DNA of 63,994 nucleotides, counting the filler, from Candidatus Hydrogenedentota bacterium (GTDB lineage Bacteria; JBFMHD01), in assembly GCA_040752395.1 (NCBI GenBank). It is 8 parts of 8 records of this genome, joined end to end, with 100 filler letters (N's around TTAATTAATTAA, not from the genome) between each part and the next. Parts side by side here need not be neighbours in the genome. Positions count along the whole stretch, not along the records: positions 1 to 21,102 come from JBFMHD010000016.1; positions 21,203 to 27,576 come from JBFMHD010000160.1; positions 27,677 to 34,030 come from JBFMHD010000161.1; positions 34,131 to 40,436 come from JBFMHD010000162.1; positions 40,537 to 46,816 come from JBFMHD010000163.1; positions 46,917 to 53,188 come from JBFMHD010000164.1; positions 53,289 to 59,459 come from JBFMHD010000165.1; positions 59,560 to 63,994 come from JBFMHD010000224.1. One strand, 5' to 3'. A program made the position numbers and the translations under genes. The notes under the pieces are model-generated. The model was not told the DNA's origin and ran no database searches. It saw only the letters and a list, made by a program, of their open reading frames with translations. Shown one piece after another: positions 3,624 to 63,912 of the stretch (the first letter of the stretch is position 1; each line of letters opens with the position of its first letter).

Positions 3624-3673
3624 ATCTTGCTTCTTGCTTCTAAAGTATAAGTTCTACTGCACCAATAACTGAG
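3624..3673 (+). repeat. modular repeat: partial A + K
   Basis: ATCTTGCTTCTTGCTTC followed by TAAGTTCTACTGCACCAATAACTGAG, the same pairing as at 20437-20490. Confidence 0.8.
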
Positions 3674-3766
3674 GCTTTACAATTTTGAAACAGTAACCAA
3701 TCGGTTATAGTTGAAATTAAGAAGCAAGATATTCGGTTGGCTTGGGAAACTCGTGAGGGGATACAG

Positions 3767-5200
3767 TTAAAATATAGTTAAATATGCTGTATATGCTGAA
3801 TTTAGTAGTTTTGTTGGGAGAATACCTAAATATATATTGATAAATAATGAGATTATAATTACCAAAAAGCCGGATAGGGTTAAGAACGGATAGAACATAG
3901 GGACGTCTTCTTCACGCTCTTTATGCATAAACATAAAAACTATAACTCTTAAATAATAATACGCTGCTATGACTGAATTGATAAGCGCGATTATAACAGT
4001 GCAATATAAACTTGATTTTATACCAGCAGAGAAAATAATGAATTTTCCGATGAAGCCCGCAAACGGCGGGATACCGGTTAAAGATAATAAAAATACCGCC
4101 ATCGAGATAGCTAAAAACGGTCTTTTGTAAATAAGACCACGATATGCACCCAAACTACGACCGTATTCTTCATCCTCTGAATTCTCAAGACAACCAACTA
4201 TTGTAAACGCACCAAGATTGGCAAAAGTGTAAAATAATAGATAAAATAACATACCATAGCCACCAAGTATGTTATCGGATATTAAACCGATGAGAATATA
4301 TCCTGAATGAGCTATAGATGAAAAAGCAAGTAAACGCTTAATGTTATTCTGATTTATGGCACTTAGATTTCCAACAGTCATGGTAAAGATAGATATGAAA
4401 CTTAAAAGATATACTATATTTTTATTTGAGATTAATCTGTATGTTAAAAGAGCTAATAAACCATAAGCAGCTGATTTAACACCTGTGCTCATAAATGCCG
4501 TGGTTGGTGTCGGAGCACCATCATAGACATCAGCAGTCCAGAAATGGAATGGAAACGCCGAAATTTTAAAAAGTACACCGAAAATAATTAAAAGGATGCC
4601 TGCTAACTGTAAACCCGAATAAGTCTGAACATTTAAACTATCGATGCTTAATGAACCTGTCCATATATAATTTAGTGATATACCGTACAAAATAAAGCCT
4701 GCAGATATGCTGCCAAGTATAAGATACTTTATACCTGACTCTACACAGCGACTACTCTCTTTTAAATATGCACAAATAATATATATAGGAATAGACATAA
4801 GCTCTATACCTATATAGATATAAAGAAGATTCTTTGAAGAGACTAAAGTCATCATTCCGATTAAACTGAATAGCATACTTGAAGTATATACCCCACTAAA
4901 TTCGCGCATTAGACAGAAATATTGGTTCGCTGATAATAAAGATAAAATACCTGATATAATAAATAGTATCTTTAAATAAGTAGAATAAAATGTTAAATAA
5001 AAGTTATTATTAAAAGCAGGATAAAAATCTATTTTATGAAAAAACTCGCGTAATTGAAACCCAACAAATATTAAGCCCACTAAAGCAATAAAAGTAATGG
5101 GACCCTTCCATTGCCGAAATATAAAAACATCAAGTAATAGAATAATTAATGCTATCGCAAGAATGATAATTTCAGGTCTAATGACAAAAATTTCAGGCAT
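3767..5200 (-). CDS. nuoN: NADH-quinone oxidoreductase subunit N
   Basis: ESGIKYLILGS, FKISAFPFHFWTADVYDGAPTP, KRLLAFSSIAHSGY; operon position. Confidence 0.95.
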   Translation of the reverse strand: MPEIFVIRPEIIILAIALIILLLDVFIFRQWKGPITFIALVGLIFVGFQLREFFHKIDFYPAFNNNFYLTFYSTYLKILFIISGILSLLSANQYFCLMREFSGVYTSSMLFSLIGMMTLVSSKNLLYIYIGIELMSIPIYIICAYLKESSRCVESGIKYLILGSISAGFILYGISLNYIWTGSLSIDSLNVQTYSGLQLAGILLIIFGVLFKISAFPFHFWTADVYDGAPTPTTAFMSTGVKSAAYGLLALLTYRLISNKNIVYLLSFISIFTMTVGNLSAINQNNIKRLLAFSSIAHSGYILIGLISDNILGGYGMLFYLLFYTFANLGAFTIVGCLENSEDEEYGRSLGAYRGLIYKRPFLAISMAVFLLSLTGIPPFAGFIGKFIIFSAGIKSSLYCTVIIALINSVIAAYYYLRVIVFMFMHKEREEDVPMFYPFLTLSGFLVIIISLFINIYLGILPTKLLNSAYTAYLTIF

Positions 5201-5203
5201 AGA

Positions 5204-6655
5204 TTACTTTACATACTCTAAAATAGTCGTTTCAATTAGTTTTATAAAAGGTAAAGGATATAAACCTATAAGAAAAATAAAGGATACCAGAGGTACTAAA
5301 ACTATCCATTCCCTTATACTTAAATCTTTAAGATTTACATTATTACCTGTTGGTCTACCAAATATAACTTTTTGATTAACAAGTAATAGATACATAGCAG
5401 AGACAATAACGCCGAGCGATGCAAGGAAACCAGAAAGAGGATTGTATTTAAATCCGCCAACAAGACATAAGAATTCACCTATAAAACCGTTTGTGCCAGG
5501 TAATGCCATTGAAGCAAGGGTTGTTATAACGAATATACTCGAGTATCGCGGCATAGAAACTGCTAAACCATTAATATCAGCTATTTCTCTTGTATGTCTT
5601 CTCTCATAAATCATACCGACCAGAAGAAAGAGTAACCCGGTATTTATACCATGGTTTATCATCTGAATTATGCTGCCTGTTATACCCTGCAGATTAAATG
5701 AGAATACCCCAAGCATAACAAATCCGAGATGAGATACAGAAGAATACGCAACAAGCCGTTTCACATCGCTCTGTTTCATCGCAACAAGCCCACCAAAAAT
5801 AATCCCGATTATTGATAACCCAAGAATATAAGGCGCAAAATATTGCGATTCTTCCGGGAAAACAGGGATGGCGATCCTTAAAAAACCATAAACACCCATC
5901 TTTAAAAGTATCCCTGCAAGTATTACACTACCTGCTGTCGGAGCCTCTGTATGGGCATCAGGAAGCCAGGTATGAAATGGCCATAACGGAACTTTTATGG
6001 CAAAACCAAATGAGATAAATAAAAAGAATAATTTACCTAAGTGTGAGTGGGTATTGTAAAAATCAGGCAGATATAAAGATAATATACCTGTATGTTTGTA
6101 ATGAATAATATATAATGCGATAAGCCCAAAAAGTAAAAATACACTCCCTGCCATAGTAAATAAAAAGAATTTTATAGCTGCATAGATTCGATTCCCGCTA
6201 CCCCAGATACCAATAAATATAGCCATCGGTATTAACATAAATTCCCAGAATATGTAAAATAACAGAACATCAAGCGAGAGAAAAACACCTAACATAGCTG
6301 TCTCAAGTAAAAGTAATGATATATGAAAACTTTTAACTGATTTTGTTATGGCGCTGGAAGCTAAAACACAAATCGGGGAAAGAAAAACTGTGAGTAATAC
6401 AAGTAAGATACTTATACCATCAATCCCGAGATGATATTTAGCACCAAGATTAGGTATCCACTCTTTTATTTCTACAAGCTGGAACCCAGCAAGACTCGAA
6501 TCAAATAATATAAGTGTTCGTATCCCTGTAAATAAAGTAACAATAGTAAAAGCAAAGGCTATAGCTCTGATATGATACTCTTTTTCTTTTGGTAAAAATA
6601 ATAATACTATACTTCCTATAACAGGTAAAAAAATTAAAAGACTTAATATACCCAT
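5204..6655 (-). CDS. nuoM: NADH-quinone oxidoreductase subunit M
   Basis: LGIDGIS, FAIKVPLWPFHTWLPDAHTEAPTAGSV, LPGTNGFIGEF. Confidence 0.96.
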   Translation of the reverse strand: MGILSLLIFLPVIGSIVLLFLPKEKEYHIRAIAFAFTIVTLFTGIRTLILFDSSLAGFQLVEIKEWIPNLGAKYHLGIDGISILLVLLTVFLSPICVLASSAITKSVKSFHISLLLLETAMLGVFLSLDVLLFYIFWEFMLIPMAIFIGIWGSGNRIYAAIKFFLFTMAGSVFLLFGLIALYIIHYKHTGILSLYLPDFYNTHSHLGKLFFLFISFGFAIKVPLWPFHTWLPDAHTEAPTAGSVILAGILLKMGVYGFLRIAIPVFPEESQYFAPYILGLSIIGIIFGGLVAMKQSDVKRLVAYSSVSHLGFVMLGVFSFNLQGITGSIIQMINHGINTGLLFLLVGMIYERRHTREIADINGLAVSMPRYSSIFVITTLASMALPGTNGFIGEFLCLVGGFKYNPLSGFLASLGVIVSAMYLLLVNQKVIFGRPTGNNVNLKDLSIREWIVLVPLVSFIFLIGLYPLPFIKLIETTILEYVK

Positions 6656-8842: not shown

Positions 8843-8925
8843 CCCCTCTGAAAAGCTGTAACTTTAGTAATCTTACATAGAAGCAAGAAGCAAGATAAAG
8901 AAACTAAAACCGAAGACCGGGGCGT
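8843..8925 (-). repeat. modular repeat: partial A + C, inside the nuo operon
   Basis: + strand CCCTCTGAAAAGCTGTAACTTTAGTAAT..AGAAGCAAGAAGCAAGATAA, plus CCGAAGACCGGGGCG resembling 52139-52153. Confidence 0.75.
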
Positions 8926-13106: not shown

Positions 13107-13270
13107 CCACAACACCAATTGTTTAATTGTTTATTAGACAGCTATTGTTTTTTGGCAATTGCTGGTGTGGTTTTCTGATACTTTTTACTTCTTCACCACA
13201 TATAACTGAGAACGTGTGAAATAATCATTATGGATACCACGTAACTCTTTTATTAGCGAGCCTGGTTACT
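13107..13270. repeat. degenerate repeat cluster (small IR element, A-like module, MITE left end)
   Basis: CCACAACACCAATTG..CAATTGCTGGTGTGG imperfect IR; CTGATACTTTTTACTTCTTCACCACATATAACTGA resembles 59582-59622; AGAACGTGTGAAATAATCAT matches 3511-3530. Confidence 0.6.
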
Positions 13271-15989: not shown

Positions 15990-18005
15990 ATGAAACTTAT
16001 TTTTGATATCTTATTACCTTTAATTGTATTGATAGCTCCATTTATTTATTATTTTGTTACCTCATCCAAAAAAAAGTCTGTATTTGAACGTGTCTCAAGA
16101 GAATTTAAAGCTAAACTCGAGGTAACTAAAACTCTTCTTCGTAAAACCTATTCTTTTCAGGCTAAATATAAAGATACTGTTTTTACTGTTGATGAATTCT
16201 CCAAAGGCGAGGGTGAGACGCAGACTCAATGCGCAAGAGTTACGTTTTATCCTGAGTTGGTTTGCCCTTTTATCTCTATTAAATATAAAGATATAAGTGA
16301 TAAAATTCTCTCCTTTAGTGGAGAAAAACTCCAGATAGAAAATATTGATAAGGATTTTCACATTACTACAGAAGATATCGATTACTGGAAAAGAAATATA
16401 AATAAAAATATTATAGCCAAACTTAAACAATTACCCAAAAACACAACCATTGAGTTATTAGAAGGGACACTGCGATTATATTCTGATAAAGCATTAAAAC
16501 ATTACGATTTATTAAAAGAGATTATTTATTATGGTTATGATTTTTTTAAAATATTAACTGAAAAACCTACTAAGAGTATGGAGACCTTACCTCAAGTAGA
16601 AGAAAAGACTCAAGACTCACGACTTGTGACTCACGACTCACAGAATATATGTCCGCGTTGTAAAAGTAAGATACCATTAAATTATAGAGTCTGTCCAGTA
16701 TGCAGATACGAATTAAAGCCCGGCTTAAAAATTAATTATAGTTTTATATTCTCATTCTTTATTATATTAACTCTAATAGCATATCTTGTTTATAATAAAT
16801 ACGAGCCCTTGATTAAAGGCTGGGTAAAAGAGAGAACCCATACCAAATCAGCTACGCCTCTTAAATTACAAAAGCATAAAGTAACTATCACGTATAATAA
16901 TAAAAATGCAAGAGAGGTATATTTTGCCTGGGAAGGGAATAAATGGAATCCGAAAAAAGATAGGATGTCAGGACCTGATAGAAACGGAAATTTTAATATC
17001 GGGTTTGAGTTATATCCCGGAAAGTACCAGTATAAATTTGTGGTTGATGGAGAATGGACGCTTGACCCAAAAGCTTCGACTATAAAAGATGGCGAGTTCA
17101 CAAACTCATTACTGATTGTTGGGACAGAGAATGAGATTAAATTAGCCTGGAACCAGAAAATTATAGAACAAAGAAAAAAGATAAATCTATTAGCAAGTAT
17201 AGGAAAAGAAATTAGTGTATTCAATAAACAAACTGATATAAAACACTTTGCAGTTTTTGGTGATTCACGTGGGAACCCTCATTTATTTAGAAAAATATTA
17301 TTGGATATCAAACAGAGGGAAGCAGAGTTTGTTGTATTCACAGGAGACCTTGTCAACAGACCTGAGTTCATCAATGAATGGGTGGAGATGTTCGAGATTA
17401 TAAAAGAGTCAAATTTGCCGTTTTTTATGGTTCCAGGGAATCATGATATAATGGATACCTCTTCTTACAATTTTTATAGAGATATCTTCTTTTTACCAGA
17501 TGCCGAGACATACTATTCATTGAAATTCAAGAATATTAAAATGTTAGTTTTATCTTCTGAGGACCCGAATTATGTTTCGACTTTTTCTGATACTCAATTT
17601 GTGTTTTTGAAAAATGAATTATCTTCTGATACCCCATTATTAAAATTTGTATGTATCCACAGACCGTTTTATCCTGATAAAGAATTGAGTCATCATTATA
17701 AAGATTCGATGAACAAAAATCCACGATTTCGTGATCAAGTGTGGGAGACATTTATAAAAAATAAAGTTAAGTCCGTTTTTAGTAGTCATGACCATTTTTT
17801 TTATGTCAATCGAGTAGCGGGTCTTTATGAATTTATTTCAGGTGGTGGTGGGGCGAAACTCTATGCGCCGCCATCTAAAGGTGGCTTTTATCATTATTTA
17901 TTAGTTAATATAAAGGAGAAGGATATCATAATAGAAGTTTATAAATTTATAGAAGAGAGAAAAAGTTTTGAAAAACATAAAACTTTTTTTATTAATCAAG
18001 AATGA
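15990..18005 (+). CDS. membrane protein with zinc ribbon, CBM48-like domain and calcineurin-like metallophosphoesterase
   Basis: CPRC..CPVC; LYPGKYQYKFVVDGEWTLDP; GDSR, GDLV, GNHD, HRP, SHDH motifs. Confidence 0.8.
   Translation: MKLIFDILLPLIVLIAPFIYYFVTSSKKKSVFERVSREFKAKLEVTKTLLRKTYSFQAKYKDTVFTVDEFSKGEGETQTQCARVTFYPELVCPFISIKYKDISDKILSFSGEKLQIENIDKDFHITTEDIDYWKRNINKNIIAKLKQLPKNTTIELLEGTLRLYSDKALKHYDLLKEIIYYGYDFFKILTEKPTKSMETLPQVEEKTQDSRLVTHDSQNICPRCKSKIPLNYRVCPVCRYELKPGLKINYSFIFSFFIILTLIAYLVYNKYEPLIKGWVKERTHTKSATPLKLQKHKVTITYNNKNAREVYFAWEGNKWNPKKDRMSGPDRNGNFNIGFELYPGKYQYKFVVDGEWTLDPKASTIKDGEFTNSLLIVGTENEIKLAWNQKIIEQRKKINLLASIGKEISVFNKQTDIKHFAVFGDSRGNPHLFRKILLDIKQREAEFVVFTGDLVNRPEFINEWVEMFEIIKESNLPFFMVPGNHDIMDTSSYNFYRDIFFLPDAETYYSLKFKNIKMLVLSSEDPNYVSTFSDTQFVFLKNELSSDTPLLKFVCIHRPFYPDKELSHHYKDSMNKNPRFRDQVWETFIKNKVKSVFSSHDHFFYVNRVAGLYEFISGGGGAKLYAPPSKGGFYHYLLVNIKEKDIIIEVYKFIEERKSFEKHKTFFINQE
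16602..16641 (+). repeat. module D heptamers inside a CDS
   Basis: GACTCAA GACTCAC GACTTGT GACTCAC GACTCAC; compare 62356-62388. Confidence 0.8.
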
Positions 18006-18874: not shown

Positions 18875-20287
18875 ATGTTTCTAAAGATTATTAAAAAAAA
18901 TTCATTTATACTTTATAGTAGTTTAATATTTATAACTATCTCTGTTTTTTTATTATTCTTACATAAAGACGCATTATATCTTTTCAAAAATGGAGATATA
19001 GCTCAATATTGTTCTTTTATTTCTCATAGGAACCTTCTTCAGCTATCAATACATATCGGATACTATATGATAGGCATTTTATTCAACTCTATATCAATAT
19101 TTCCTGTTATTAATACTATGAATATTTTAAATGTTATTTTTTCAGCAGGCTCAGTGGTAATGTGTCTCTTAATAACTCATTATTTTAATGAAAATAAAAA
19201 TAGCTTTTATGCATTATTAGGATGTTTTGCTTTATTAACCAATCATACTTTCCAGATTAATACATCTTTATCCGAGATATATATGTGTCAATCATTTCTG
19301 AATCTACTGACATTGTTCTTATTTTTAAAGGGTTATTATTTTATAAGTGGAATTATATTTTTTTTAAGTGTATTAGTCTCTACTAATTCTATTTTATATC
19401 TTCTTATGTTTTTTCTTTCTATGAAGGCGTGGGAAAAAAGAATAAAATTTAGTATTCCTCTAATAATAGGGATCTCTCTTTTCATAATTCTATTGAAAGA
19501 AGATTTTATATACGGTGGTAGAGGCGCGAGATTTTATTTATTCGATCCCGTAAATAATATTTTTACAGGCAGATATATTTTGGTCAGGTCAATAATAGGA
19601 ATGTTTACAGATATATCAATTATATGGCTTATCTTTTCAATAACAGGAATAATAACTTTTATTAAAGAGAATAAAGAGGGTTCAATTTATCCGGCAGGTT
19701 TGATAATTGGATTTGTGGCTGGTATCATTTTTAATAGCATAGTAAGCGATAATCTTTTATGGGGACAGGATGAAAAAGAGATACCTGCTCAATTATCGAG
19801 TTTTATGATTTTATCCTGTTTTGCTGGTAGAGGATACTTATTTATTAAGAGATATGGTAGATTAAGTAAAATTTTGTTAATCATCGGGATTTGTTTTACA
19901 TTATATTATATATTCCAATGGAATAACACGGTTAGAAAGGATATAAATGAGGCCAGACATCAATATAATTTAGTTTGTATAACAAAATCTTATGAGGATA
20001 GAGGTTGTATAATATTATCATTGTGGTCATTTTATAAGATTTATTCACTGGTGCATTATGGCGATTCAGAAAGATTTAAACCGCCATTTGATAATTTAGA
20101 GAGAGTATTTATACCCGGGACAACTGAAAATACTAAATTTGAATCTATGATAAGGGATAAAAAATCTTTTGTTGTTACATATGGAATTCCGTCAAAGGTA
20201 GTTCAGTATTTAACAGGATATCAATATACTTTAAAAATCATTACACCGGGTCTTGGATTATTGGAATATGATATACTGCTCCCCTGA
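18875..20287 (+). CDS. polytopic membrane protein, possibly a GT-C glycosyltransferase
   Basis: About 10 hydrophobic segments; HIGY and SEIY motifs reminiscent of GT-C/DUF2723 proteins. Confidence 0.6.
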   Translation: MFLKIIKKNSFILYSSLIFITISVFLLFLHKDALYLFKNGDIAQYCSFISHRNLLQLSIHIGYYMIGILFNSISIFPVINTMNILNVIFSAGSVVMCLLITHYFNENKNSFYALLGCFALLTNHTFQINTSLSEIYMCQSFLNLLTLFLFLKGYYFISGIIFFLSVLVSTNSILYLLMFFLSMKAWEKRIKFSIPLIIGISLFIILLKEDFIYGGRGARFYLFDPVNNIFTGRYILVRSIIGMFTDISIIWLIFSITGIITFIKENKEGSIYPAGLIIGFVAGIIFNSIVSDNLLWGQDEKEIPAQLSSFMILSCFAGRGYLFIKRYGRLSKILLIIGICFTLYYIFQWNNTVRKDINEARHQYNLVCITKSYEDRGCIILSLWSFYKIYSLVHYGDSERFKPPFDNLERVFIPGTTENTKFESMIRDKKSFVVTYGIPSKVVQYLTGYQYTLKIITPGLGLLEYDILLP

Positions 20288-20490
20288 AACGTGAGACACT
20301 TTAAAGGGGAGGAAAAGAGGCACAAAGGCACAAAGCAGGCTACAGACTACAGGCTTACTGGCTCCAGCCGGCTGTAGTCCGTAGCCCGTAGCCCGTAGCC
20401 TGTAGCCTGTCCTCATACTTCTCACTTCTTCCGTTATCTTGCTTCTTGCCTCTTGCTTCTAAACTAAGTTCTACTGCACCAATAACTGAG
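20271..20490 (+). repeat. modular repeat array F-E-B-A-K
   Basis: Each module has near-identical copies elsewhere in the window; F overlaps the upstream stop codon. Confidence 0.92.
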
Positions 20491-21202: not shown

Positions 21203-21356
21203 CAGCCGGCTGGAGCCCGAAGCCCGGAGCCTGAAGCCAACATATCATCTTTAGTTTTTCATATATTGTGTAGAACGCAACCCGCGCTCATGAGTACTCC
21301 TCTGAAAAACATTTTAACTTTAATAATAGCAGATAGAAAGTTAAAAGTTAAAAGTG
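21203..21356 (-). repeat. modular repeat array C-I-J-B (cut by contig start)
   Basis: 21203-21300 is nearly identical to 26783-26881. Confidence 0.9.
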
Positions 21357-26513: not shown

Positions 26514-26711
26514 TTAATAACCCCCTCCTCTGTATTTTTTGCTCATTCTTTTTCTTGCTCGCTCACTCTTCTTTTTTCGCTTCACACTCGGCTTCTCATA
26601 ATGCTGCCTCTTTTTAATCTCTGTCATTAATCCAGATTGCTGACAGGATTGCCTGAACCTCTTTAACGCTTTTTCAAAAGACTCGTCTTCTCTTACAATA
26701 ATATCCGGCAT
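26514..26711 (-). CDS. rpsU: 30S ribosomal protein S21
   Basis: ESFEKALKRF, HYEKPSVKRKKK. Confidence 0.96.
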   Translation of the reverse strand: MPDIIVREDESFEKALKRFRQSCQQSGLMTEIKKRQHYEKPSVKRKKKSERARKRMSKKYRGGGY

Positions 26712-26723
26712 CCTATACCAACC

Positions 26724-26886
26724 CTCCTTCGAAAAACGCTGTAACTCTAATAATTCGGGGTACAGGCTACGGGCTACGGACTACAGCCGGCTGGAGCCCG
26801 AAGTCCGGAACCTGAAGCCAACATATCATCTTTAGTTTTTCATACTTTGTGTAGAGCGCAAGCCGCGCTCATGAGTACTCCTTTCG
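26724..26886 (-). repeat. modular repeat array I-J-B-C
   Basis: Ends in GTTTTTCGAAGGAGG directly ahead of rpsU. Confidence 0.92.
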
Positions 26887-28680: not shown

Positions 28681-28826
28681 AGAAATTATACTAATTATAG
28701 TTATTAAAAATTACAAGGTATTTTTTCAAATTCACTCTGCAACTACCATCGCGTCAGAATTTCTGGTATTTTTATTTTGACTATTTAATAGGGAATATAT
28801 TATTATGAGTAAACAGAACAGCGTCC

Positions 28827-29040
28827 GAGGCACAAAGGCACAAAGTATGAAAAAGATAGGAGTTAGGAGTTCGTAATAATAGATCTGAGCTCCGAGCTCC
28901 GAACTTTTTCGAAGGAGAAGGCTCCAGCCGGCTGTAGTCCGTAGCCTGTAGCCTGTCCTGATACCTCTCACTTCTTCCGTTATCTTGCTTCTTGCTTCTA
29001 CTTGATATTATTATAGTTACAATGTTTTTCAGAGGAGGGG
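28827..29040 (+). repeat. modular repeat array E-G-B-A-C
   Basis: Direct matches to the other arrays. Confidence 0.93.
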
Positions 29041-29055
29041 GCAATAATAAGTTAT

Positions 29056-30581: not shown

Positions 30582-30582
30582 T

Positions 30583-30675
30583 GTCCTGATACTTCTCACT
30601 TCTTCCGTTATCTTGCTTCTTGCCTCTTGCTTCTACTTGATATTATTAGAGTTACAATGTTTTTCAGGGGAGGAT
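30583..30675 (+). repeat. modular repeat array A-C inside the trk operon
   Basis: Near-identical to 28955-29038. Confidence 0.93.
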
Positions 30676-30682
30676 ATTTTCG

Positions 30683-31368: not shown

Positions 31369-31372
31369 TGGT

Positions 31373-32065: not shown

Positions 32066-32071
32066 AAACTA

Positions 32072-32350
32072 CCTCCTCTCCTCTGAAAAACATTGTAACT
32101 CTAATAATATCAAGTAGAAGCAAGATAACGGAAGAAGTGAGAGGTATCAGGACAGGCTACAGGCTACGGACTACAGCCGGTTGGAGCCAAAAGCCCGGAG
32201 CCGAAAGCCAACATCCTTTAAAAAAATCAGAATGCAAAATGCGGAAATCTGTAGTCAACAGCCAGAATTTAGAACGCAATAACCCAATAACCCAATAACC
32301 CAATAACCCAATAGTGTAGAGCGCAAAAGCGCTCATGTTGACTCCTCTGA
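32072..32350 (-). repeat. modular repeat array I-H-(unique)-B-A-C
   Basis: (AATAACCC)4 plus full B, A and C copies. Confidence 0.93.
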
Positions 32351-32883: not shown

Positions 32884-32885
32884 AA

Positions 32886-33427: not shown

Positions 33428-33825
33428 ATAGAAGACAGAAGACAGGAGCGACGTATGAAAGAGGCATATACTGCTCCCCTGAAACGTGAGACACTTTAAA
33501 GGGGAGTACTCATGAGCGCGGGTTGCGCTCTACACTATTGGGTTCTTGGGTTCTTGGGTTATTGCGTTTTTGCGCTCTACATAAAGGATGAAAAAGATAG
33601 GAGTTAGGAGTTCGTAATAATAGATCCGAGCTCCGAACTCCGAACTTTGAAGAAGTAGTGAGGGTCACAAGACCCGTAGTAGACTGAGGGAATATCAAGA
33701 AGCAAGATAACGGAAAAAAAGACAACGAAAAAGAAAGGTTGAGGTTGAGGCTAAGGTTGAGGAACGGAAAGAAAGACAACGAAAGGCACAAAGGCACAAA
33801 GGCACAAAGTGACAGAGGCACAAAG
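33428..33825 (+). repeat. largest modular repeat array: F-I-H-I-G-inverted A half-(AGGTTG)n-E
   Basis: Matches 20271-20310, 56768-56850 and 28846-28906; five GGCACAAA-type octamers. Confidence 0.9.
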
Positions 33826-34030
33826 TTTTTTCTATCAGCTCCGTACAGAACGAGTAATACGAACAGTTAAAGAAGAAACTATCTGGATATCAGATTGGGA
33901 GACATATGAGGAAGCGGTTTTGGGTATTTCAGAAGGGATAGAGTTATATAACGGGGATCATCTTCATTTATCATTAGGGTATTTAAGTGCAGTTGAGTTT
34001 GAGCAATTAATTTATGAGAGGTGTGAAGAG
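33826..34030 (+). pseudogene. IS3-family transposase, integrase-core C-terminal remnant
   Basis: ERVIRTVKEE..YN..H.SLGYLSAVEFE resembles the E-helix and HSSLGY motif of IS3 DDE transposases; the 5' part is missing. Confidence 0.75.
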
Positions 34031-37042: not shown

Positions 37043-37045
37043 AAT

Positions 37046-39111: not shown

Positions 39112-39130
39112 AATAAAATCGTATTTTAAT

Positions 39131-40237
39131 TCACTTTTTATCTTTAGCCAGCAATATTTTCACAATGCGTGCAGCGGTCTGACCATCCCATAAAGGGATA
39201 CGCTCAGCCTGTTTATACCGATTATTCATTATCTGGTTAAAATATTTTAAAATCTTATATTCTGAATTACCAACCAGAGTATTTGTTCCTTTTGTAATAG
39301 TGACTGGTCGTTCTGTATTATAACGCATTGTAAGACATGGTATGTTTAGAAAAGTTGTCTCCTGCTGCAGACTGCCTGAATCGGTCAAGACAAATTTTGC
39401 ATTGGTAAACAATTGAACAAACTCAAAATAACCGAGTGGCTCGGTAGCGATCATATTTTTCATATTATTTAAGAGTAGCTTCATTTCTGAATTGGTTTTT
39501 ATCTGTTTTAAAGTTCTTGGATGTACAGGAAAAACAAGTGGTATCTCTTTCTGTATCTCATCAAATATGTTCAATATCTGAATCAAAGTATCAGAATTAT
39601 CCACGTTTGAGGGACGATGCATTGTTATTACCCCATACTGTTTCTTCTTCAAGTGGTACCTTTTTAATACATCGTCTCTTGCTTTAATTTTTTTCAATGC
39701 AAACAATAACGAATCAATCATTATATCACCAACGATGTATATCTTTTTTTCTGAAATCCCCTCTCGTTTCAGATTACAGGCTGAGATCTGGTCGATAGCA
39801 AACAGATAGTCAGAAACTGCATCTGTCAGCAGACGGTTTATCTCTTCAGGCATCGTGCGGTCAAAACTCCGACATCCGGCTTCAATATGAGCCACCTTGA
39901 TACCGAGTTTTACCGCTACAAGAGAACAGGCGAGTGTAGAGTTAACGTCTCCTGCTACTATCACGATCTTGGGTTTTTCGTGAAGCAGGACTTTTTCAAA
40001 CTCAATCATAATTCTGCCTGTCTGTTCACCGTGCAAACCTGAACCACAGCCGAGATTATAATCCGGTTTACGAATACCCAGGTCTCTGAAAAATGAATCT
40101 GACATATTATAATCATAGTGCTGTCCTGTATGAACTAACTTGTACTCGATAAATTTACTGGATTTATTAAATATTCTCTGTAGCGGTGCAATCTTCATAA
40201 AGTTTGGTCTGGCACCAACTACATTGATAAACTTCAT
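39131..40237 (-). CDS. wecB: UDP-N-acetylglucosamine 2-epimerase (non-hydrolysing)
   Basis: GARPNFMK, HTGQHY, MPEEINR, TDSGSLQQE, TERP. Confidence 0.94.
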   Translation of the reverse strand: MKFINVVGARPNFMKIAPLQRIFNKSSKFIEYKLVHTGQHYDYNMSDSFFRDLGIRKPDYNLGCGSGLHGEQTGRIMIEFEKVLLHEKPKIVIVAGDVNSTLACSLVAVKLGIKVAHIEAGCRSFDRTMPEEINRLLTDAVSDYLFAIDQISACNLKREGISEKKIYIVGDIMIDSLLFALKKIKARDDVLKRYHLKKKQYGVITMHRPSNVDNSDTLIQILNIFDEIQKEIPLVFPVHPRTLKQIKTNSEMKLLLNNMKNMIATEPLGYFEFVQLFTNAKFVLTDSGSLQQETTFLNIPCLTMRYNTERPVTITKGTNTLVGNSEYKILKYFNQIMNNRYKQAERIPLWDGQTAARIVKILLAKDKK

Positions 40238-40536
40238 CTTTGTGGCTTTGCTCCATAGTAAATTGTAAATTTATTTGCCTATTCGCTGTCTCTGGATTCG
40301 CTACTACTTTAATTTTTTATCTTTGTGTCTTAAAATAACGTTTCAGCCCCTACTGTATTATAATTATCGGATTTTTCAACAAAAATCTATATTATATTTT
40401 TTCTTGCCAGTTTGCGATATTTAAATATACTTCCAANNNNNNNNNNNNNNNNNNNNNNNNNNNNNNNNNNNNNNNNNNNNTTAATTAATTAANNNNNNNN
40501 NNNNNNNNNNNNNNNNNNNNNNNNNNNNNNNNNNNN

Positions 40537-40600
40537 CCCATCCCCTATGAGCCATCCCCTAATATCCTTTGCGCCTTTGAAAGTAAAAAGTTAGAAGTAT
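40537..40600. repeat. repeat module CCCATCCCCTATGASCCATCCCCTAATAT plus E remnant
   Basis: Matches 63836-63875; lies at a contig start. Confidence 0.8.
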
Positions 40601-44585: not shown

Positions 44586-44592
44586 TATATCA

Positions 44593-44847
44593 CTCCTCTG
44601 AAAAACGCTGTAACTCTAATAAAATCAAATAGAAGCAAGAAGCAAGATAACGGAAGAAGTGAGAGGTATCAGGACGGGCTACAGGCTACAGGCTACGGAC
44701 TACAGCCGGCTGGAGCCAAAAGCCCGGAGCCTGCTGAAAAGTCTCGAGTCTTGAGTCTTGAGTCTTGTTTTGACTCACGACTCTTTTCATACTTTGTGCC
44801 TCTGTGCCTCTGTGCCTCTGTGCCTTTCCTTTGAATCTTTCATCCTT
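44593..44847 (-). repeat. modular repeat array (TGAAAGAT)-E-D-B-A-C
   Basis: Collinear with 62229-62425 apart from unit copy numbers. Confidence 0.94.
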
Positions 44848-48155: not shown

Positions 48156-48167
48156 AAAATCTCAGTT

Positions 48168-48239
48168 ATAAGAAGCAAGACAACGAAAGAAGTTATAGGA
48201 GACAGAAGACAGATTATCCGAAAGGATTCAAAGATGAAA
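48168..48239. repeat. degenerate modular repeat
   Basis: AAGAAGCAAGACAACGAAAG, AGACAGAAGACAG and GATTCAAAG pieces shared with 33428, 33697-33732 and 44829. Confidence 0.55.
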
Positions 48240-50914: not shown

Positions 50915-52078
50915 TTATTTTAAAAAAAGTTTAGCAAAATTATAAAGAACCCTGAATAAGTAGTTTTTATTAACAATCTCGCGAATGTTATTAAATAATT
51001 CTGAATATCTTATTTCACCCTTTAATAATTTCTCAAACAAGGAGACAATATAATCGTTCTTAATACCAAAATAATATGTTAGATATGGTAATCGGAACAT
51101 AAAATCAGCTAATATGTTCGCATACTTATATTCAGCGTAAAACTCTTTGTTTATATGCTCAAAATATTCTGAAAAATCAGGCCCATATTCATTAAACATT
51201 TTTAATATCACATTCGCTGCTATTTTAGCACTATAAATAGCTTGATAAATCCCTTCGCCGCTTAATGGGTCTACTAAAAATCCTGCATCACCAATAAGTA
51301 AAGTGTGTTTAAAAGTTATTTGAGGAATAATCAGTTTTGATATACAAGCAAGCCCCCCACCTCTTATCGACTCATTACAATAACTCATCCCCATTCGTGA
51401 TAAAAATTCTCTTGTATCTCTGACAATACCCGGACATCTATTAGACATTCTCCCAACACCACAGGATAGATATTCTTCTTTGGGAAATATCCAACCATAT
51501 CCATTATCAATATATCCTGTTTCCATTACGGACTTGATTAAATTTTTATTATTACTGATTTTTATGTCAGTAGCCCAGCCTATCTGTGTTTTAAGACTAT
51601 CTTCTATCTCTGGTTTTAAACATTTTCTTGTTATACTTAATCCACCATCAGCACCTATACAGAATTTAGATTTATATATCCCTTTTATGGTTTCAACAGT
51701 AACAAGCTGCTGACCCTCATAAACTTTTAATACTCTTTCATTATCATTAACAATTACGCCTTGATTTTTTGCTATGCTTAAAAGCCAGAGATCAAACTCT
51801 TTTCTGTCAACCATAAGTATCTCTGTATCTGCTATATAATCTCTGGTGAATTTTTTAAATTTAAACTCAATATTTTTTACTCTTGCTTTGATTAGATTAT
51901 TTAACTCTTTATTAGCTATTAACTGAAAAGTGCGTGTCGTGATACCGCCAGCACAGGGTTTATATCGTGGTAATTTTTCTTTTTCAATCAATAAGACCTT
52001 TAAGCCAGCGTTTGCTAAAATTCTTGAAGCAGTGGAGCCAGCTGGTCCTGCACCAATAACAATAGCATCATAAATCAT
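50915..52078 (-). CDS. geranylgeranyl reductase-family FAD oxidoreductase
   Basis: GAGPAG, RYKPCAGG, GYGWIFPK, GDAGFLVDPLSGEGIYQA. Confidence 0.9.
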   Translation of the reverse strand: MIYDAIVIGAGPAGSTASRILANAGLKVLLIEKEKLPRYKPCAGGITTRTFQLIANKELNNLIKARVKNIEFKFKKFTRDYIADTEILMVDRKEFDLWLLSIAKNQGVIVNDNERVLKVYEGQQLVTVETIKGIYKSKFCIGADGGLSITRKCLKPEIEDSLKTQIGWATDIKISNNKNLIKSVMETGYIDNGYGWIFPKEEYLSCGVGRMSNRCPGIVRDTREFLSRMGMSYCNESIRGGGLACISKLIIPQITFKHTLLIGDAGFLVDPLSGEGIYQAIYSAKIAANVILKMFNEYGPDFSEYFEHINKEFYAEYKYANILADFMFRLPYLTYYFGIKNDYIVSLFEKLLKGEIRYSELFNNIREIVNKNYLFRVLYNFAKLFLK

Positions 52079-52082
52079 TGTA

Positions 52083-52153
52083 ACACCGAAAACCTATCAC
52101 CTATCACCGAACACCAAACACCGAACTTAAAAACTCCACCAAAGACCGAGGCG
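52083..52153. repeat. heptamer tract (CACCKAW)n plus AACTCCACCRAAG motif
   Basis: ACCTATC ACCTATC ACCGAAC ACCAAAC ACCGAAC; the motif recurs at 50885-50903. Confidence 0.65.
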
Positions 52154-53188: not shown

Positions 53189-53409
53189 NNNNNNNNNNNN
53201 NNNNNNNNNNNNNNNNNNNNNNNNNNNNNNNNTTAATTAATTAANNNNNNNNNNNNNNNNNNNNNNNNNNNNNNNNNNNNNNNNNNNNTTATGATGTCAG
53301 GTGATAAAACAAATTTGTCTGATTTTAAAATAATATCAGATGCTTATTCATTGAATTGGGCTTTATTCAAAGCATTAAATACCAACGATTTTGTTACTCT
53401 ACAATACTT

Positions 53410-53675
53410 CTAACTTCTGACCCCTGATACTTCTTACTTCGTGAAATTATTAGAGTTACAACGTTTTTCGAAGGAGTCAACACGAGCGTGGGTTGCGCTC
53501 TAGACTATTGCGTTCTTGCGCTCTACACTATGGGGTTCTTGGGTTCTTGGGTTATTGCGTTATTGCGTTTTTGCGCTCTACACAACGTATGAAAAACCAG
53601 ATGTTTGTTTATCTTGCTTCTTGCTTCTTGCTTCTATTTGATATTATTAGAGTTACAACGTTTTTCAGAGGAGGT
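53410..53675 (+). repeat. modular repeat array C-I-I-H-I-A-C
   Basis: Two C copies (53446-53477, 53638-53674), three TTGCGCTCTA units and GGGTTCTT octamers. Confidence 0.92.
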
Positions 53676-56767: not shown

Positions 56768-57077
56768 CATGAGCGCGTTTGCGCTCTACACTATTGGGTT
56801 CTTGGGTTATTGCGTTTTTGGGTTTTTGCGCTCTACACAAAGTATGAAAAACTAAAGATGATATGAAAAGAGTCGTGAGTCGCAAGTCGTGAGTCAAAAC
56901 AGGACTCGAGACTCAAGACTCAAGACTTTTCAGCAGGCTTTGGGCTTTTGGCTCCAGCCGGCTGTAGTCTGTAGCCTGTACCCCGAATTATTAGAGTTAC
57001 AGCGTTTTTCAGAGGATAGGAGTTAGGAGTTCGTAATAATAGCTCCGAGCTCCGAACTTCGAACTTTTTCGAAGGGG
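56768..57077 (+). repeat. modular repeat array I-H-I-J-D-B-C-G
   Basis: D-B is the reverse complement of 62275-62395; G matches 28856-28915. Confidence 0.94.
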
Positions 57078-57956: not shown

Positions 57957-58219
57957 AAAAGCTGTTCTTATTTTTCGATTTCTTCTAATTCAGCTTTAAT
58001 AGATTGATGATACTTAATTCCTCCTTTTTCTATATTCTTTCTACTTGTTAATATTTTTAGTAACTTAAAGTCTAAAGTTTAAAGAACGGGTCTTGTGACC
58101 CTCTTTACATTATATTGATTATATTGAAATTACAAAAAATAAAAAATGTAGTGAGCATCTTTAGATGCGATGACCAGGTTTTTCAGAGCTCTCTTTCCAA
58201 ATAATAACCATACAAAGAT

Positions 58220-58284: not shown

Positions 58285-59130
58285 ATGGATGATGGGAAAA
58301 ATAAGGTTGAATTACTAAAAGAATATTTCAAAAAAAGAGACGATATTGTAATGGCTTTTTTATTCGGTTCAAGAACAAAAAATAGTAGTCATAGCCAGTC
58401 TGACTGGGACATAGCAATATACCTGAAACCTGATAAACAGTACGTTGAGATAGAAGAACAAGACCGAGCGTATGAACAAGAAGATGTTATCTGGAATGAT
58501 TGTATAAAAATACTTAATACTGATAATGTTGATTTAATCATTTTAAACCGTGCACCGGTAAATATTTCTGATACTGCTATCAGGGGGAAAACTTTGATTA
58601 TTAAAGACCATACCTTATATTTATTGTTTATGCTGGCTGTTACACGTGAAGCTGAAGATTATAGAAAATTTGTAAACGAATACTATAGTATCAGTCAGCG
58701 TTCTACATCTTTTTCGTCTGCAGACAGGGTCATACTACAAAAAAGTATCAGTTTTGTCGAGGAGCAGATGACACTTTACCCATATTTTAATAATCTAACT
58801 CTCAAAGAATACACCGCCAATATTCACAAAAGGAATGATGTAGAACGCTGGGTTGAGAATATCGTTAATGCAGTTATCGATATGTCAAAGATTATACTTG
58901 CAAGCCGGCATAAAATTATACCTGATACTTACAGAGAAGTTATAGTACGAGCTTTAGTGATATTAAAACTATCTGAGAATTATATAAGTAAATTCGAAAA
59001 GTGGATAAAACTCAGAAATATACTTGCTCATGAATATCTGGATATAAGATGGGGAAGGATTGAAGACTTTATAAAGACAAGCGAACCCGTGGTCAATGAC
59101 TTTTTATCTTCCCTCAAAACCTATTTATAA
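58285..59130 (+). CDS. fused MntA-like nucleotidyltransferase and HepT-like (DUF86) RNase
   Basis: LFGSRTKNSSHSQSDWDIA and LRNILAHEY in one 281-aa ORF. Confidence 0.88.
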   Translation: MDDGKNKVELLKEYFKKRDDIVMAFLFGSRTKNSSHSQSDWDIAIYLKPDKQYVEIEEQDRAYEQEDVIWNDCIKILNTDNVDLIILNRAPVNISDTAIRGKTLIIKDHTLYLLFMLAVTREAEDYRKFVNEYYSISQRSTSFSSADRVILQKSISFVEEQMTLYPYFNNLTLKEYTANIHKRNDVERWVENIVNAVIDMSKIILASRHKIIPDTYREVIVRALVILKLSENYISKFEKWIKLRNILAHEYLDIRWGRIEDFIKTSEPVVNDFLSSLKTYL

Positions 59131-59257: not shown

Positions 59258-59459
59258 TTAGTCTTCTAATTCAGCTTTAACTGATTGATGATACTTAATC
59301 CTTGCTTTCTTTTTAGCCTGCTCGAACCACTGATTAAATATCTCATTTTGTTTTTTTTCAAAGAGGTCATTATAGAGTTCGGCCCGGAATCTCTCAAATT
59401 CCTCTTCGTCAAAAGGTTTACGTTTTATAAGTTGAAATATATGGTAACCGTTCTGAGCG
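59258..59459 (-). CDS. C-terminus of a probable PpiD/SurA-type parvulin chaperone (5' truncated)
   Basis: Manual translation ..NGYHIFQLIKRKPF..KQNEIFNQWFEQAKKKARIKYHQSVKAELED*. Confidence 0.6.
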
Positions 59460-62195: not shown

Positions 62196-62228
62196 AGCCG
62201 CTTCGCTCCATTGCAAATTGCTTTATTT

Positions 62229-62490
62229 AGAAGCAAGATAACGGAAGAAGTGAGAGATATCAGGACAGGCTACAGGCTACGGACTACAGCCGGCTGGAGC
62301 CAAAAGCCAAAAGCCTGCTGAAAAGTCTTGAGTCTTGAGTCTCGAGTCCTGTTTTGACTCACGACTTGCGACTTGTGACTCACGACTCTTTTCATACTTT
62401 GTGCCTCTGTGCCTTTGTGCCTTTCTCTGTGGCTCTGTGCCTCTTTTCCTCCTCTTTAAAGTGTCTCACGTTTCAGGGGAGCAGTATATC
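62229..62490 (-). repeat. modular repeat array F-E-D-B-A
   Basis: Fills the lysA-radA spacer; every module recurs elsewhere. Confidence 0.94.
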
Positions 62491-62499
62491 ATCTACTAC

Positions 62500-63744
62500 T
62501 CACAGACTCTCACCTCGTATAATGTCTCTATAGCTTTCGCGCTTTCTTATTATTCGAAAATCTTTGCCATCAACCAGGACCTCAGCGCACCTTGGCCTTG
62601 AATTATAATTCGAAGCCATAGAGAATCCATAAGCCCCTGCAGACCTTATCGCGAGCAAATCACCTGAGAGTGGGATATTCATCTCGTAATCTTGTGCGAA
62701 AAAATCAGCTGATTCACAAACAGGACCAACAATATCAACCTTCTTTAGCTCTGTATCAGAACGTTTTCTTATATATTCGACTCTATGATAGGCTTCATAA
62801 AATGCGGGTCTAATTAAATCATTCATACCAGCATCTACAATAACGAAATTTTTACTGTAAGACTCTTTATAATATAAAACTTTTGTTACAAGAATGCCAC
62901 TATTGCCAACAATCAACCGCCCGGGCTCCATTAAAAGTTTTAGATTTAAATCCTTTATCAAGGGTAAGATAGCATTGCTTAATTCAAAAGGTGTGGGCGG
63001 GTTCTCATCTTTATAAATAATTCCGTAACCGCCTCCAATATTTAAAATCTCTATTTTAAATCCGTTGGTTCTTAAATTATTAATCAGTTTGTTTAATTTT
63101 GAGACTGCTTTTATATACGGTTCAACACTGACGAGTTGTGAGCCGATATGCGAGTGAATGCCTACGACATTAAGAGCTTTTAAGTCTTTTAAAAAAGCAA
63201 ATATCTCAAAAGCTTTATCAATCGGCAATCCAAACTTGTTTTCTTTTGTTCCTGTTATAATAAATTTATGAGTTTTAGCTTCTACATCGGGATTGATTCT
63301 TACTGCGATATTTGCGACTCTACCCATCTTTTTAGCGATCTCATTTATTCTTTCTGCTTCAGTAAACGATTCGATGTTAAAAAGCATTATGTTATTTTTT
63401 AAAGCCATGGTTATCTCGTCATCTGTTTTACCAACACCCGCATAAACAACTTTTGATGTATCTGAACAAGCCTCTATAACTCTGTAAAGCTCGCCACCAG
63501 AAACAATGTCAAAACCACTCCCTTCATCACTCAGTAATTTAATTATCGCTATATTTGAATTTACCTTAACAGAATAACATATCAGATGTTCCACCTTTTC
63601 AAACGCTGCATCAAATTTTCTGTAATGGTCAAGAATGGTATTTGCACTGTATATATAAAGAGGTGTCCCAACTTTTTTTACAATCTCCTCAACTGATACG
63701 CCCTCGCAATATAGTAAATCATCCTTGTACATAATCCGATCCAT
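62500..63744 (-). CDS. lysA: diaminopimelate decarboxylase
   Basis: YSVKVN, HIGSQ, EPGR, GPVCESAD, SNYNSRPR. Confidence 0.96.
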   Translation of the reverse strand: MDRIMYKDDLLYCEGVSVEEIVKKVGTPLYIYSANTILDHYRKFDAAFEKVEHLICYSVKVNSNIAIIKLLSDEGSGFDIVSGGELYRVIEACSDTSKVVYAGVGKTDDEITMALKNNIMLFNIESFTEAERINEIAKKMGRVANIAVRINPDVEAKTHKFIITGTKENKFGLPIDKAFEIFAFLKDLKALNVVGIHSHIGSQLVSVEPYIKAVSKLNKLINNLRTNGFKIEILNIGGGYGIIYKDENPPTPFELSNAILPLIKDLNLKLLMEPGRLIVGNSGILVTKVLYYKESYSKNFVIVDAGMNDLIRPAFYEAYHRVEYIRKRSDTELKKVDIVGPVCESADFFAQDYEMNIPLSGDLLAIRSAGAYGFSMASNYNSRPRCAEVLVDGKDFRIIRKRESYRDIIRGESL

Positions 63745-63748
63745 AAAT

Positions 63749-63912
63749 GCTCCTCTGAAAAGTCTCTAGTCTCCGGTCATTAAGTCGTCAGTCTTATCCT
63801 GACTCACGACTCTCGACTCCCGACCCCTAATATACCCCATCCCCTATGACCCATCCCCTAATATCCTCTGTGCCTCTGTGCCTTTCCTTTGAATCTTTCA
63901 ATCTTTCAACCT
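63749..63912 (-). repeat. degenerate modular repeat array (TGAAAGAT)-E-(GGGGATGG)-D-C end
   Basis: 63867-63900 matches 44808-44842; ends TTTTCAGAGGAG before lysA. Confidence 0.85.

Follow-up and report, generated by a model that had tools for sequence, protein, structure and literature searches.

The DNA analysed here, which we call the window, is a stretch of 63,994 bases from the Candidatus Hydrogenedentota assembly GCA_040752395.1, an assembly of the metagenome type with short contigs. It consists of eight contig pieces (1-21102, 21203-27576, 27677-34030, 34131-40436, 40537-46816, 46917-53188, 53289-59459, and 59560-63994) separated by linkers of the form N-TTAATTAATTAA-N, and it is low in G+C (about 28-40% per 2 kb). 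A Pfam scan covering 52 open reading frames (ORFs) and frames of the window identified ordinary housekeeping genes: dnaE, seven nuo genes, pfk, a thiolase gene, a row rpsU-yqeY-dnaG-rpoD, hemA, trkH-trkA, thyX, and the genes for ribonucleotide reductase, LysA, RadA, aconitase, TruA, and part of LigA, together with HEPN/HepT-nucleotidyltransferase genes at three loci. The subject of this study is what lies in the spacers between these genes, namely 17 arrays composed of recurrent modules, designated here by capital letters, which belong to one repeat family (Table 1).

This repeat family is real, modular, and non-coding. Comparison of the window with itself delimited 23 repeat-covered intervals with a total of 2830 nucleotides (nt), almost all of them intergenic, and 256 distinct 14-mers had at least three copies each, where 20 first-order Markov controls had 0-2 such 14-mers. 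Module C has nine copies at two or fewer mismatches (0 expected from 100 shuffles) and a degenerate tenth copy at 8843-8870, before nuoK; full module A has six copies, the core of B has seven copies plus one truncated by the contig end at 21203, and the right half of module I occurs ten times in the 64 kb, in extragenic positions. Pairwise identity averages 90-99% across 15 module definitions (85-100% in the overall check of the modules), and Tandem Repeats Finder identified units of 7 and 8 nt with variable copy numbers. The original prediction, which had been made from the sequence of this window, is borne out on these points: it had given eight copies of B, about ten of C, and six of full A, with high identity and variable tandem-unit counts. 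The nine module strings that it quoted were all recovered in their places, with five of them refined (28827-29037 as E-(J')-G-B-A-C, 32078-32345 as I-H-x-B-A-C, 44593-44842 as E-(J')-D-B-A-C, 53400-53674 as (A*)-C-I-I-H-I-J'-A'-C, and 62226-62489 as F-E-J'-D-B-A), and the gene contexts that it named (nuoJ-nuoK, trkH-trkA, lysA-radA, and upstream of rpsU) agree with the Pfam assignments. Its figure of about 20 spacers on all eight pieces was too high, as modules are present in 17 of the 36 spacers of at least 40 nt and on seven of the eight pieces; none were found in the piece 34131-40436. The modules occupy 4811 of the 7675 spacer nucleotides, and the median spacer length is 278 nt with modules and 93 nt without them.

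Order, orientation, and borders of the arrays

To compare the order of the modules, we oriented all arrays alike, with module C reading TTATTAGAGTTACA..GTTTTTCAGAGGAG. The arrays then obey an almost linear grammar, [F][E or I-H-I][J][D or G][B][A][C or K], in which the D/G slot may be empty. F is a hairpin that begins at or directly after the upstream stop codon; E is an octamer array of the AGGCACAA type, and the alternative for its slot is a hairpin, I, similar to repetitive extragenic palindromic (REP) sequences, with the octamer array H. J reads GTATGAAAAA..., D and G are heptamer hairpins, and B is a heptamer hairpin around CAGCCGGCTG, followed by A, a pyrimidine-rich unstructured block with a TTCTTGC heptamer tail, and by C, an AU-rich block with a strong Shine-Dalgarno-like motif at its end. 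The same junctions recur: B is joined to A in five arrays and to C in two, as well as in a contig outside the window (L001, described below), D is joined to B in three of three cases, and A is followed by C in six arrays, by K in two, and by the gene itself in one. Given this near-fixed order and orientation, many arrays resemble products of deletion or substitution from a small set of composite cassettes, and not the freely interchangeable parts proposed in the original prediction, which had missed the grammar, the sense orientation, the common array ends, the heptamer hairpins, and the derivation of H from I.

Sixteen of the 17 arrays are in the sense orientation relative to the flanking genes (p = 2.7e-4, from a table curated by hand), as are all 11 arrays with two or more canonical modules for which the downstream start is known. 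On one and the same 6-kb contig, the strand of the arrays changes along with that of the genes (28827 (+), 30582 (+), 32078 (-), and 33465 (+)), which indicates that the orientation bias follows transcription and not replication. Most arrays are closed by a terminal motif, TTTTCRRAGGRG, that includes a Shine-Dalgarno-like sequence; it is present in 11 copies against 0.05 expected, all of them in sense, and eight of the 11 lie directly before annotated starts. In most cases GGAG(G) stands 5-11 nt from the start codon, and many arrays stop at that distance. In the 40 nt upstream of 54 ORFs, most array-free genes have AT-rich leaders with no strong Shine-Dalgarno motif, and the strongest GGAGG motifs come from module C. 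The D and G cassettes also share a left border, GTATGAAAAR, with seven copies against 0.70 expected.

The strict sense orientation, the nearness to start codons, and a GGAGG that module C brings where most genes have none are also what would be expected if the arrays were not mobile at all, but cis-regulatory leaders conserved by selection (bound by the ribosome or by a protein that recognises RNA or DNA), or if A-C were a reused promoter with its ribosome-binding site. The A-C junction, TGATATTAT, resembles by eye an extended -10 element, a promoter tool called a TG-extended site (TTAACT-17-TATTAT) at the C copy 21323-21351, and four copies of ATAACTGAG follow A-like blocks against 0.79 expected, one of them 5 nt before the truA start. 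The portions of the literature on which we draw offer precedents in the TAACTGA repeats (MacGregor 2015, PMC4679880) and in 'promoter reuse' (Nijveen et al. 2012, PMC3575422). However, several factors make this alternative distinctly unlikely. First, the downstream genes are functionally unrelated (rpsU, trkA, the ribonucleotide reductase gene, a GGDEF gene, lysA, radA, and nuoK). Second, the arrays triple the length of the spacers, their cassette content differs freely by locus, and some of them are antisense or lie in a convergent spacer. Third, promoter-like sites show no enrichment, and the excess of ATAACTGAG is marginal, as one of 100 shuffles reached four copies.

Table 1. The 17 repeat arrays of the window and one promoter-like site, in order of position (nt, nucleotides; aa, amino acids).
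Feature	Position	Strand	Composition	Surroundings
a13	3510..3673	+	L element 3510-3602, then A-tail 3622-3642 and K 3649-3673 (containing ATAACTGAG)	Convergent spacer after dnaE
a14	8843..8905	-	A-tail (TTATCTTGCTTCTTGCTTCT), degenerate C, TTTTCAGAGGGG	nuoJ-nuoK spacer; 10 nt to nuoK ATG
a16	13175..13255	+	A-like CT-rich block, ATAACTGAG, left half of L	
a1	20270..20490	+	F-E-B-A-K	Upstream gene 18875-20287 (470 aa) terminates within left arm of F
a2	21203..21326	-	C-I-J-B, B core cut by contig end	After thiolase gene; near-identical to start of contig L001
a3	26724..26881	-	I-J-B-C; TTTTCGAAGGAG terminal	Before rpsU-like ORF 26514-26711, which heads the rpsU-yqeY-dnaG-rpoD row
Promoter-like site	28777-28806		TTGACT-18-TATTAT (tool-called)	Just upstream of a4
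a4	28827..29037	+	E-J'-G-B-A-C	Between divergent hemA and a 60-aa ORF, then trkH
a5	30582..30672	+	A-C	Spans trkH-trkA spacer, from trkH stop codon to 9 nt before trkA ATG
a6	32078..32345	-	I-H(x5)-unique stretch-B-A-C	6 nt to ATG of LTXXQ-family gene 31373-32065
a7	33465..33826	+	F-I-H-I-J'-G, unique stretch, inverted A-tail, short repeats, E(x5)	Followed by rve remnant 33836-34030
a15	40537..40600	-	A-like block, E-like units, module P (CATCCCCTAATAT type)	Contig end
a8	44593..44842	-	E(x4)-J'-D-B-A-C	Spacer between secretin-like and GAF-domain genes; 7 nt to GTG start
a17	48161..48195	-	Degenerate A-like block and ATAACTGAG	5 nt to truA ATG
a9	53400..53674	+	A-like block-C-I-I-H-I-J'-A-tail-C	Before ribonucleotide reductase gene
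a10	56768..57077	+	I-H-I-J-D-B-C-G	6 nt to ATG of GGDEF gene
a11	62226..62489	-	F-E-J'-D-B-A	Between lysA and radA
a12	63750..63900	-	E-P-D-like hairpin-TTTTCAGAGGAG	5 nt to lysA ATG

One array reaches into the gene before it: the last five codons and the stop codon (20285-20287) of the ORF 18875-20287 lie inside module F, so that the repeat supplies the end of the reading frame.

Hairpins and the probable growth of tandem units

Modules G, D, B, and F are predicted to form imperfect hairpins made of 7-nt tandem units (z of about -1 to -7), with one mismatch per 7-nt unit in their stems, and A-C is unstructured (z = +1.2). The sense strand folds more stably in 14 of 18 module copies, a result that fits a role of the sense RNA or single strand and is equally expected of any G+U-rich strand. 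The octamers of H share the phase of hairpin I's right arm and merge gradually into it, as in the series TTGGGTTC, TTGGGTTC, TTGGGTTA, TTGCGTTT, TTGCGCTC at 33536-33577, with similar arrays at 56792 and 53509; judged from these series, the H octamers derive from an arm of module I. The 13-nt sequence TTGCGCTCTACAC is found on both sides of the H array, and a graded series flanked in this way is what local slippage from a seed is expected to produce. E and the end of I have CACAAAGTATG in common, and a seed unit is likewise the point from which the tail of A and the arms of B extend. The growth of the tandem units in place by slippage is well supported by these patterns.

Module I opens with an ATG located 5-6 nt after GGAG (33511-33606, 56769-56855, 32336-32157 (-), 26873-26841 (-), and 21292-21260 (-)). 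The short ORFs that begin there encode 10-59 amino acids (aa), with an abundance of hydrophobic residues, since every frame of the H octamers has a YWVIGLLG-like reading. We considered a conserved peptide and rejected it, since the ORFs vary in length and frame and the copy at 53480 has ACG in place of ATG. Heptamers were also observed in two other settings. Five D-type heptamers (GACTCAA/GACTCAC) lie in frame at 16605-16639, inside the ORF 15990-18005 (+) of a metallophosphoesterase with a glycogen-binding domain, where they encode ...KTQDSRLVTHDSQ.... A separate heptamer array at 52082-52126 (AACACCG x6.4 on the plus strand, CGGTGTT-type on the gene strand) stops a few nt before the ATG of the FAD-binding gene 50915-52078, and its units are absent from the main family.

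Relation to known intergenic repeats and their mobilisers

The family is striking for its density and order, yet it is of a known kind, that of composite interspersed intergenic repeats, and the undescribed system that had been proposed is not established. The closest in design are the BOX elements, which are modular, 67-637 bp long, and predicted to form stem-loops if transcribed (Croucher et al. 2011, PMC3049150; this and the other papers compared here are drawn on in part). Both BOX elements and the arrays of the window consist of named intergenic modules in a fixed order (boxA-boxB(n)-boxC in the case of BOX) with a variable number of internal modules, both are found next to and within operons, and both have predicted stem-loops. 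Our arrays have ordered end modules, variable internal cassettes, and hairpins predicted to fold, which is a resemblance of design only. Large BOX elements can create short expressed ORFs, and the I-H-I block might likewise do so. The number of parts, for which the original prediction recognised no analogue, also has a precedent: the BOX-type repeats of Streptococcus suis comprise two families with seven sub-sequences 'in particular permutations' (PMC3049150). There are nevertheless clear differences. BOX elements belong to streptococci, whereas the host of the window is no streptococcus (its RadA is at most 56% identical to any protein in the database) and no sequence relation between the two has been shown. 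The window family has more slots than BOX, with alternative cassettes per slot, and its variable part consists of 7-8-nt tandem units that serve as hairpin arms, in contrast to the 45-nt boxB units. Unlike BOX, the arrays are strictly in sense, with a 3' Shine-Dalgarno-like motif before the start codon, and the terminal inverted repeats and target duplications of BOX are not established for them. The best identities outside the window were 59-61% for TrkA and 56% for RadA, so that no close relative is present in the protein database; the nearest named matches belong to Hydrogenedentota and Aminicenantes in the case of TrkA and to Bacillota in the case of RadA.

The bacterial interspersed mosaic elements (BIMEs) of Escherichia coli combine REP types with several extra motifs, for about ten motif types. 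As in the window, BIMEs are mosaic extragenic arrays of small GC-rich imperfect palindromes and other conserved motifs, found at high copy density and inside operons (Nunvar et al. 2010, PMC2817692); unlike BIMEs, most modules of the window are tandem heptamers or octamers. REPs are units of about 20-40 nt in which a GT(A/G)G head precedes the palindrome. Module I, read by its sequence, has the anatomy of a REP as set out in the same source: its antisense strand has the head GTAG and, after it, an imperfect palindrome rich in GC (GTGTAGAGCGCAA-n-CCGCGCTC). The arrays could thus represent a REP/REPIN system in which module I, and perhaps B, are REPs moved as single-stranded DNA by a REP-associated tyrosine transposase (RAYT, IS200/IS605-like) encoded elsewhere in the genome, the other blocks being inter-REP motifs. 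The abundance of the right half of I, the run of GTAGCC units in the right arm of B, and the clustered, extragenic location of the modules are all consistent with such a system, but the arrangement of the copies is not. The REPs of BIMEs and REPINs alternate or are inverted, whereas the copies of I and of its right half are all direct within arrays (33514/33523/33570; 53484/53493/53516/53571; 56779/56826), and all modules have a single orientation tied to transcription. In addition, no RAYT or Y1 transposase was found by Pfam among the 52 ORFs and frames of the window that were scanned. We consider this origin unlikely.

Another precedent is the TAACTGA heptamer, which forms direct repeats in marine Beggiatoaceae, some Cyanobacteria, and Bacteroidetes (MacGregor 2015, PMC4679880). 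According to the portions of that paper on which we rely, these repeats are also intergenic, mostly forward, and placed a few nt from start codons, over the ribosome-binding position; they precede unrelated and essential genes, including those for ribosomal proteins, in hosts that make little use of Shine-Dalgarno sequences, and a mobiliser is known neither for them nor for the window family. The preference for the forward orientation near starts is reproduced here, both by the arrays and by the copies of TTTTCRRAGGRG. However, the TAACTGA repeats consist of one heptamer in 2-43 copies with no other modules in the description given, whereas the window has many 7-8-nt units as hairpin arms within a multi-block grammar, and its ATAACTGAG copies are all single, with no tandem TAACTGA. 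In cyanobacteria, short tandemly repeated repetitive (STRR) sequences are tandem heptanucleotide arrays in intergenic DNA with very small nested repeats, and their unit sequences differ from those of the window; to our knowledge, they have not been described as ordered multi-module cassettes ending in a ribosome-binding motif. The hosts of STRR sequences are cyanobacteria, which the host of the window is not, as judged by its gene content (nuo genes and no photosystem genes in the window) and its protein matches.

The Correia/NEMIS, ERIC, RUP, and YPAL elements resemble the arrays in that they are small, non-autonomous intergenic repeats, and, once transcribed, they fold into long stem-loops with effects on how stable the neighbouring mRNA is or how it is processed, some of them carrying promoters or ORFs (Delihas 2008, PMC2229807). 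Unlike the arrays, such co-transcribed transposable elements of the miniature inverted-repeat kind (MITEs) are single units of ~100-200 bp with terminal inverted repeats and duplications of TA, in either orientation, and a terminal ribosome-binding motif is not among the properties listed in the portions of that article considered here, where 'Shine' and 'ribosome binding' have 0 occurrences (PMC2229807). It could still be argued that the arrays are internally deleted derivatives of a MITE-like master element of ~400 nt, with F at its left end and C at its right, mobilised by a DDE transposase. In favour of this, the end of C recurs, inverted and without mismatch over 11 nt, as the left arm of F (CTCCCCTGAAA), a match reached by one of 2000 shuffles and by three of 1970 random 43-mers of the window; the modules are colinear; and a remnant of an rve-type (DDE) integrase core, the C-terminal ~65 aa at 33836-34030 (+), lies at a contig end directly after the array 33465-33826 and might be what is left of such a gene. 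Nevertheless, F and C are together in none of the 17 arrays, and their match is at the same time the Shine-Dalgarno/anti-Shine-Dalgarno pairing within the F hairpin, which may make it functional and not terminal. No target duplication was seen, the alternatives for one slot (D or G; E or I-H-I) are substitutions and not deletions, and the match of the remnant is weak (rve_3, E = 6e-5, 23.2 bits, under the Pfam cut-off of 26.5 bits), with the N-terminal two thirds absent. As a result, we regard a MITE origin as quite improbable. Apart from this remnant, the Pfam scan found no transposase, RAYT, or reverse transcriptase among the 52 ORFs and frames of the window that it covered. The original prediction had stated that neither a common terminal inverted repeat nor an adjacent transposase bounds the arrays; the first point has to be qualified for the 11-nt inverted match, although F and C never share an array, and the second is not quite accurate in view of the remnant.

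A separate MITE-like element, L, at 3510-3602 (+) has inverted ends of ~14 nt (GAGAACGTGTGAAA ... TTTCACACGTTCTC) around ~60 nt, and its left half alone is present at 13208-13254 (+); both loci adjoin A-like or ATAACTGAG blocks. Two 54-nt direct repeats, M (94% identical, 32361-32414 and 33362-33415 (+)), surround a HepT/nucleotidyltransferase toxin-antitoxin gene pair at 32458-33494, and each copy has a -10-like TATAAT on the minus strand; they may represent a promoter duplication or a mobile toxin-antitoxin cassette. A second gene of the toxin-antitoxin type, the fused nucleotidyltransferase-HepT gene 58285-59130, is similarly flanked by 38-nt direct repeats (57981-58018 and 59262-59299 (+)).

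In the main-text literature searched, we found analogues only, and no description of an equivalent element. The multi-slot alternative cassettes, the hairpins of 7-nt units, the strict sense orientation, and the terminal Shine-Dalgarno-like motif seem to be the novelties of the family.

Possible origin and role of the arrays

The Rfam search suggested with the original prediction, performed with Rfam 15 on both strands of the whole window, gave no match, whether at gathering scores or with E allowed up to 0.1. Comparison of two arrays with plasmid and phage collections by blastn gave no match, and the metagenome contigs of the Joint Genome Institute (JGI) and a collection of viral contigs gave no exact match to the B core or to C. 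Among genome contigs, the pattern of module C identified at least one contig outside the window, L001, a 2198-bp contig of an unclassified metagenome-assembled genome (G001). Its positions 1-140 carry I(half)-J-B-C followed by an ATG, in accordance with the grammar of the window, and its first 75 nt equal the window array at 21203 save for one mismatch. The rest of G001 points elsewhere: its DnaE and RadA are 46% and 48% identical to those of the window, it shares no coding DNA with the piece 27677-34030 (the only piece searched), its modules are found on this contig alone, and the module pattern is present in 0 of 40 relatives and in 0 of the 24 other genomes of its phylum. L001 is thus probably a mis-binned contig of the window's organism or of a close strain, a binning error brought about by the repeats; given that G001 is otherwise unrelated and that the contig is nearly identical to the array at 21203, it provides no evidence of spread between species.

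If a short-read metagenome assembly had collapsed or mis-joined fewer repeats, the module combinations and some of the gene neighbourhoods would be chimeric. The eight contigs of the window are short, two or more of their ends lie within modules (21203, in the B core, and 40537, in P) and one in an insertion sequence remnant (34030), and arrays of 210-310 nt are longer than a typical short read. It is important to consider, however, that nuoJ-nuoK, trkH-trkA, and rpsU-yqeY-dnaG-rpoD are neighbours in many bacteria, and arrays sit between the members of the first two pairs and before the third group. In addition, exact junction sequences recur at separate loci with different unit counts, and the independently assembled L001 has the same I-J-B-C order. 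These factors make an assembly artefact very improbable as the source of the family.

The explanation that we favour, with a probability of about 0.55, is that the arrays are lineage-specific composite interspersed repeats of the BOX/BIME kind, located in mRNA-leader and intercistronic spacers and reshaped by slippage and cassette recombination. The arrays are probably carried within mRNA leaders and would be transcribed as part of the mRNA. Their 7-8-nt tandem units would expand and contract in place through replication slippage, and recombination or template switching would gain, lose, or swap whole cassettes between loci. We infer this dispersal of whole cassettes because the unique parts of modules at unlinked loci are 90-99% identical. 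The border motifs GTATGAAAAR (left) and TTTTCRRAGGRG (right), together with the shared blocks B, A, and C, might be the sites of exchange, which would explain why order, orientation, and the terminal ribosome-binding motif are retained. Since each cassette brings a ribosome-binding motif of its own, the downstream gene would stay translatable after an insertion or a deletion, and essential operons would for this reason tolerate arrays. Probable effects of the hairpins are on the stability or processing of the mRNA, and differences in unit count may serve to tune expression. The first dispersal to new spacers could be due to a trans-acting transposase encoded elsewhere in the genome or to recombination alone. 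Of the actively spreading, modular non-coding element family of the original prediction, the modular and non-coding character is retained, while active spread is not established.

Several observations weigh against this explanation. First, the array 13175-13255 is antisense to both neighbouring genes, the only one of the 17 to be so, and one A-tail within 33465-33826 is inverted. Second, the order of the modules has cycles, with C before I (21203 and 53400) and C before G (56768); we read these as two cassettes joined head to tail, for which tandem joining is needed. Third, the array 44586-44850 folds no better than shuffles (z = -1.6 sense and -1.4 antisense), and only three of eight arrays leave the start region more accessible than shuffled upstream sequence does, so that we do not claim a designed open ribosome-binding site. 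Fourth, promoter-like and terminator-like sites were no commoner in scans of the window than in shuffles, and the placement of arrays downstream of promoters accordingly relies on the tool-called site at 28777-28806 and on reading by eye. Fifth, no target-site duplication was recognised by eye around the arrays; Shine-Dalgarno-like motifs do stand on both sides of I-...-C units (for example TTCGAAAGGAG and TTTCGAAGGAG around 26724-26881), and they are also parts of modules. Finally, L001 is the sole outside copy among the matches listed and is not independent of the array at 21203, and chimeric assembly across repeats is possible.

Two further candidates were set aside. A promoter seen by eye upstream of 56768 (TTGACA-17-TAATAA) fails the criteria of the promoter tool. 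The idea that the arrays group together sites for restriction or methylation (GANTC in D, GAGCTC in G, and GCCGGC in B) is unsupported, with 161 copies of GANTC outside arrays and 186 in all, against 175 expected in all. A separate observation concerns the window as a whole, where four palindromes fall far short of the numbers expected from a second-order Markov model (GATC 69 against 227, CTAG 7 against 80, CATG 42 against 123, and GGCC 32 against 68) and GANTC does not; the avoidance suggests restriction-modification pressure.

A bolder possibility, which we hold to be speculative and unlikely, is that the arrays are mobile 'ribosome-binding-site to ribosome-binding-site' cassettes specialised for translation-initiation regions. 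Each unit would open directly behind a Shine-Dalgarno-like motif, in many cases with an ATG of its own as in module I, and would close with a new motif, so that it could insert, stack, or excise between the ribosome-binding site and the start codon without silencing the gene. The sense orientation would in this case come from RNA-mediated spreading, that is, from template switching between leaders followed by reverse transcription or recombination. Alternatively, the host might use the arrays as tunable leaders, with translation or the stability of the mRNA set by the counts of 7-8-nt units, in a lineage where Shine-Dalgarno motifs are otherwise hardly used.

If composite interspersed repeats are the correct explanation, nearly two thirds of the intergenic DNA of the window would belong to one ordered repeat system that reaches into essential operons. 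The arrays would offer a compact example from nature of modular mRNA leaders assembled from short tandem repeats, hairpins, and a ribosome-binding motif that is portable, and a possible source of rapid and reversible variation in expression, as well as a practical cause of fragmented assemblies and mis-binned contigs in this lineage. They would also extend the BOX/BIME type to a new, deep-branching uncultured lineage and to a new design, one that is locked in sense, has a Shine-Dalgarno-like motif at its end, and is built of heptamer hairpins.

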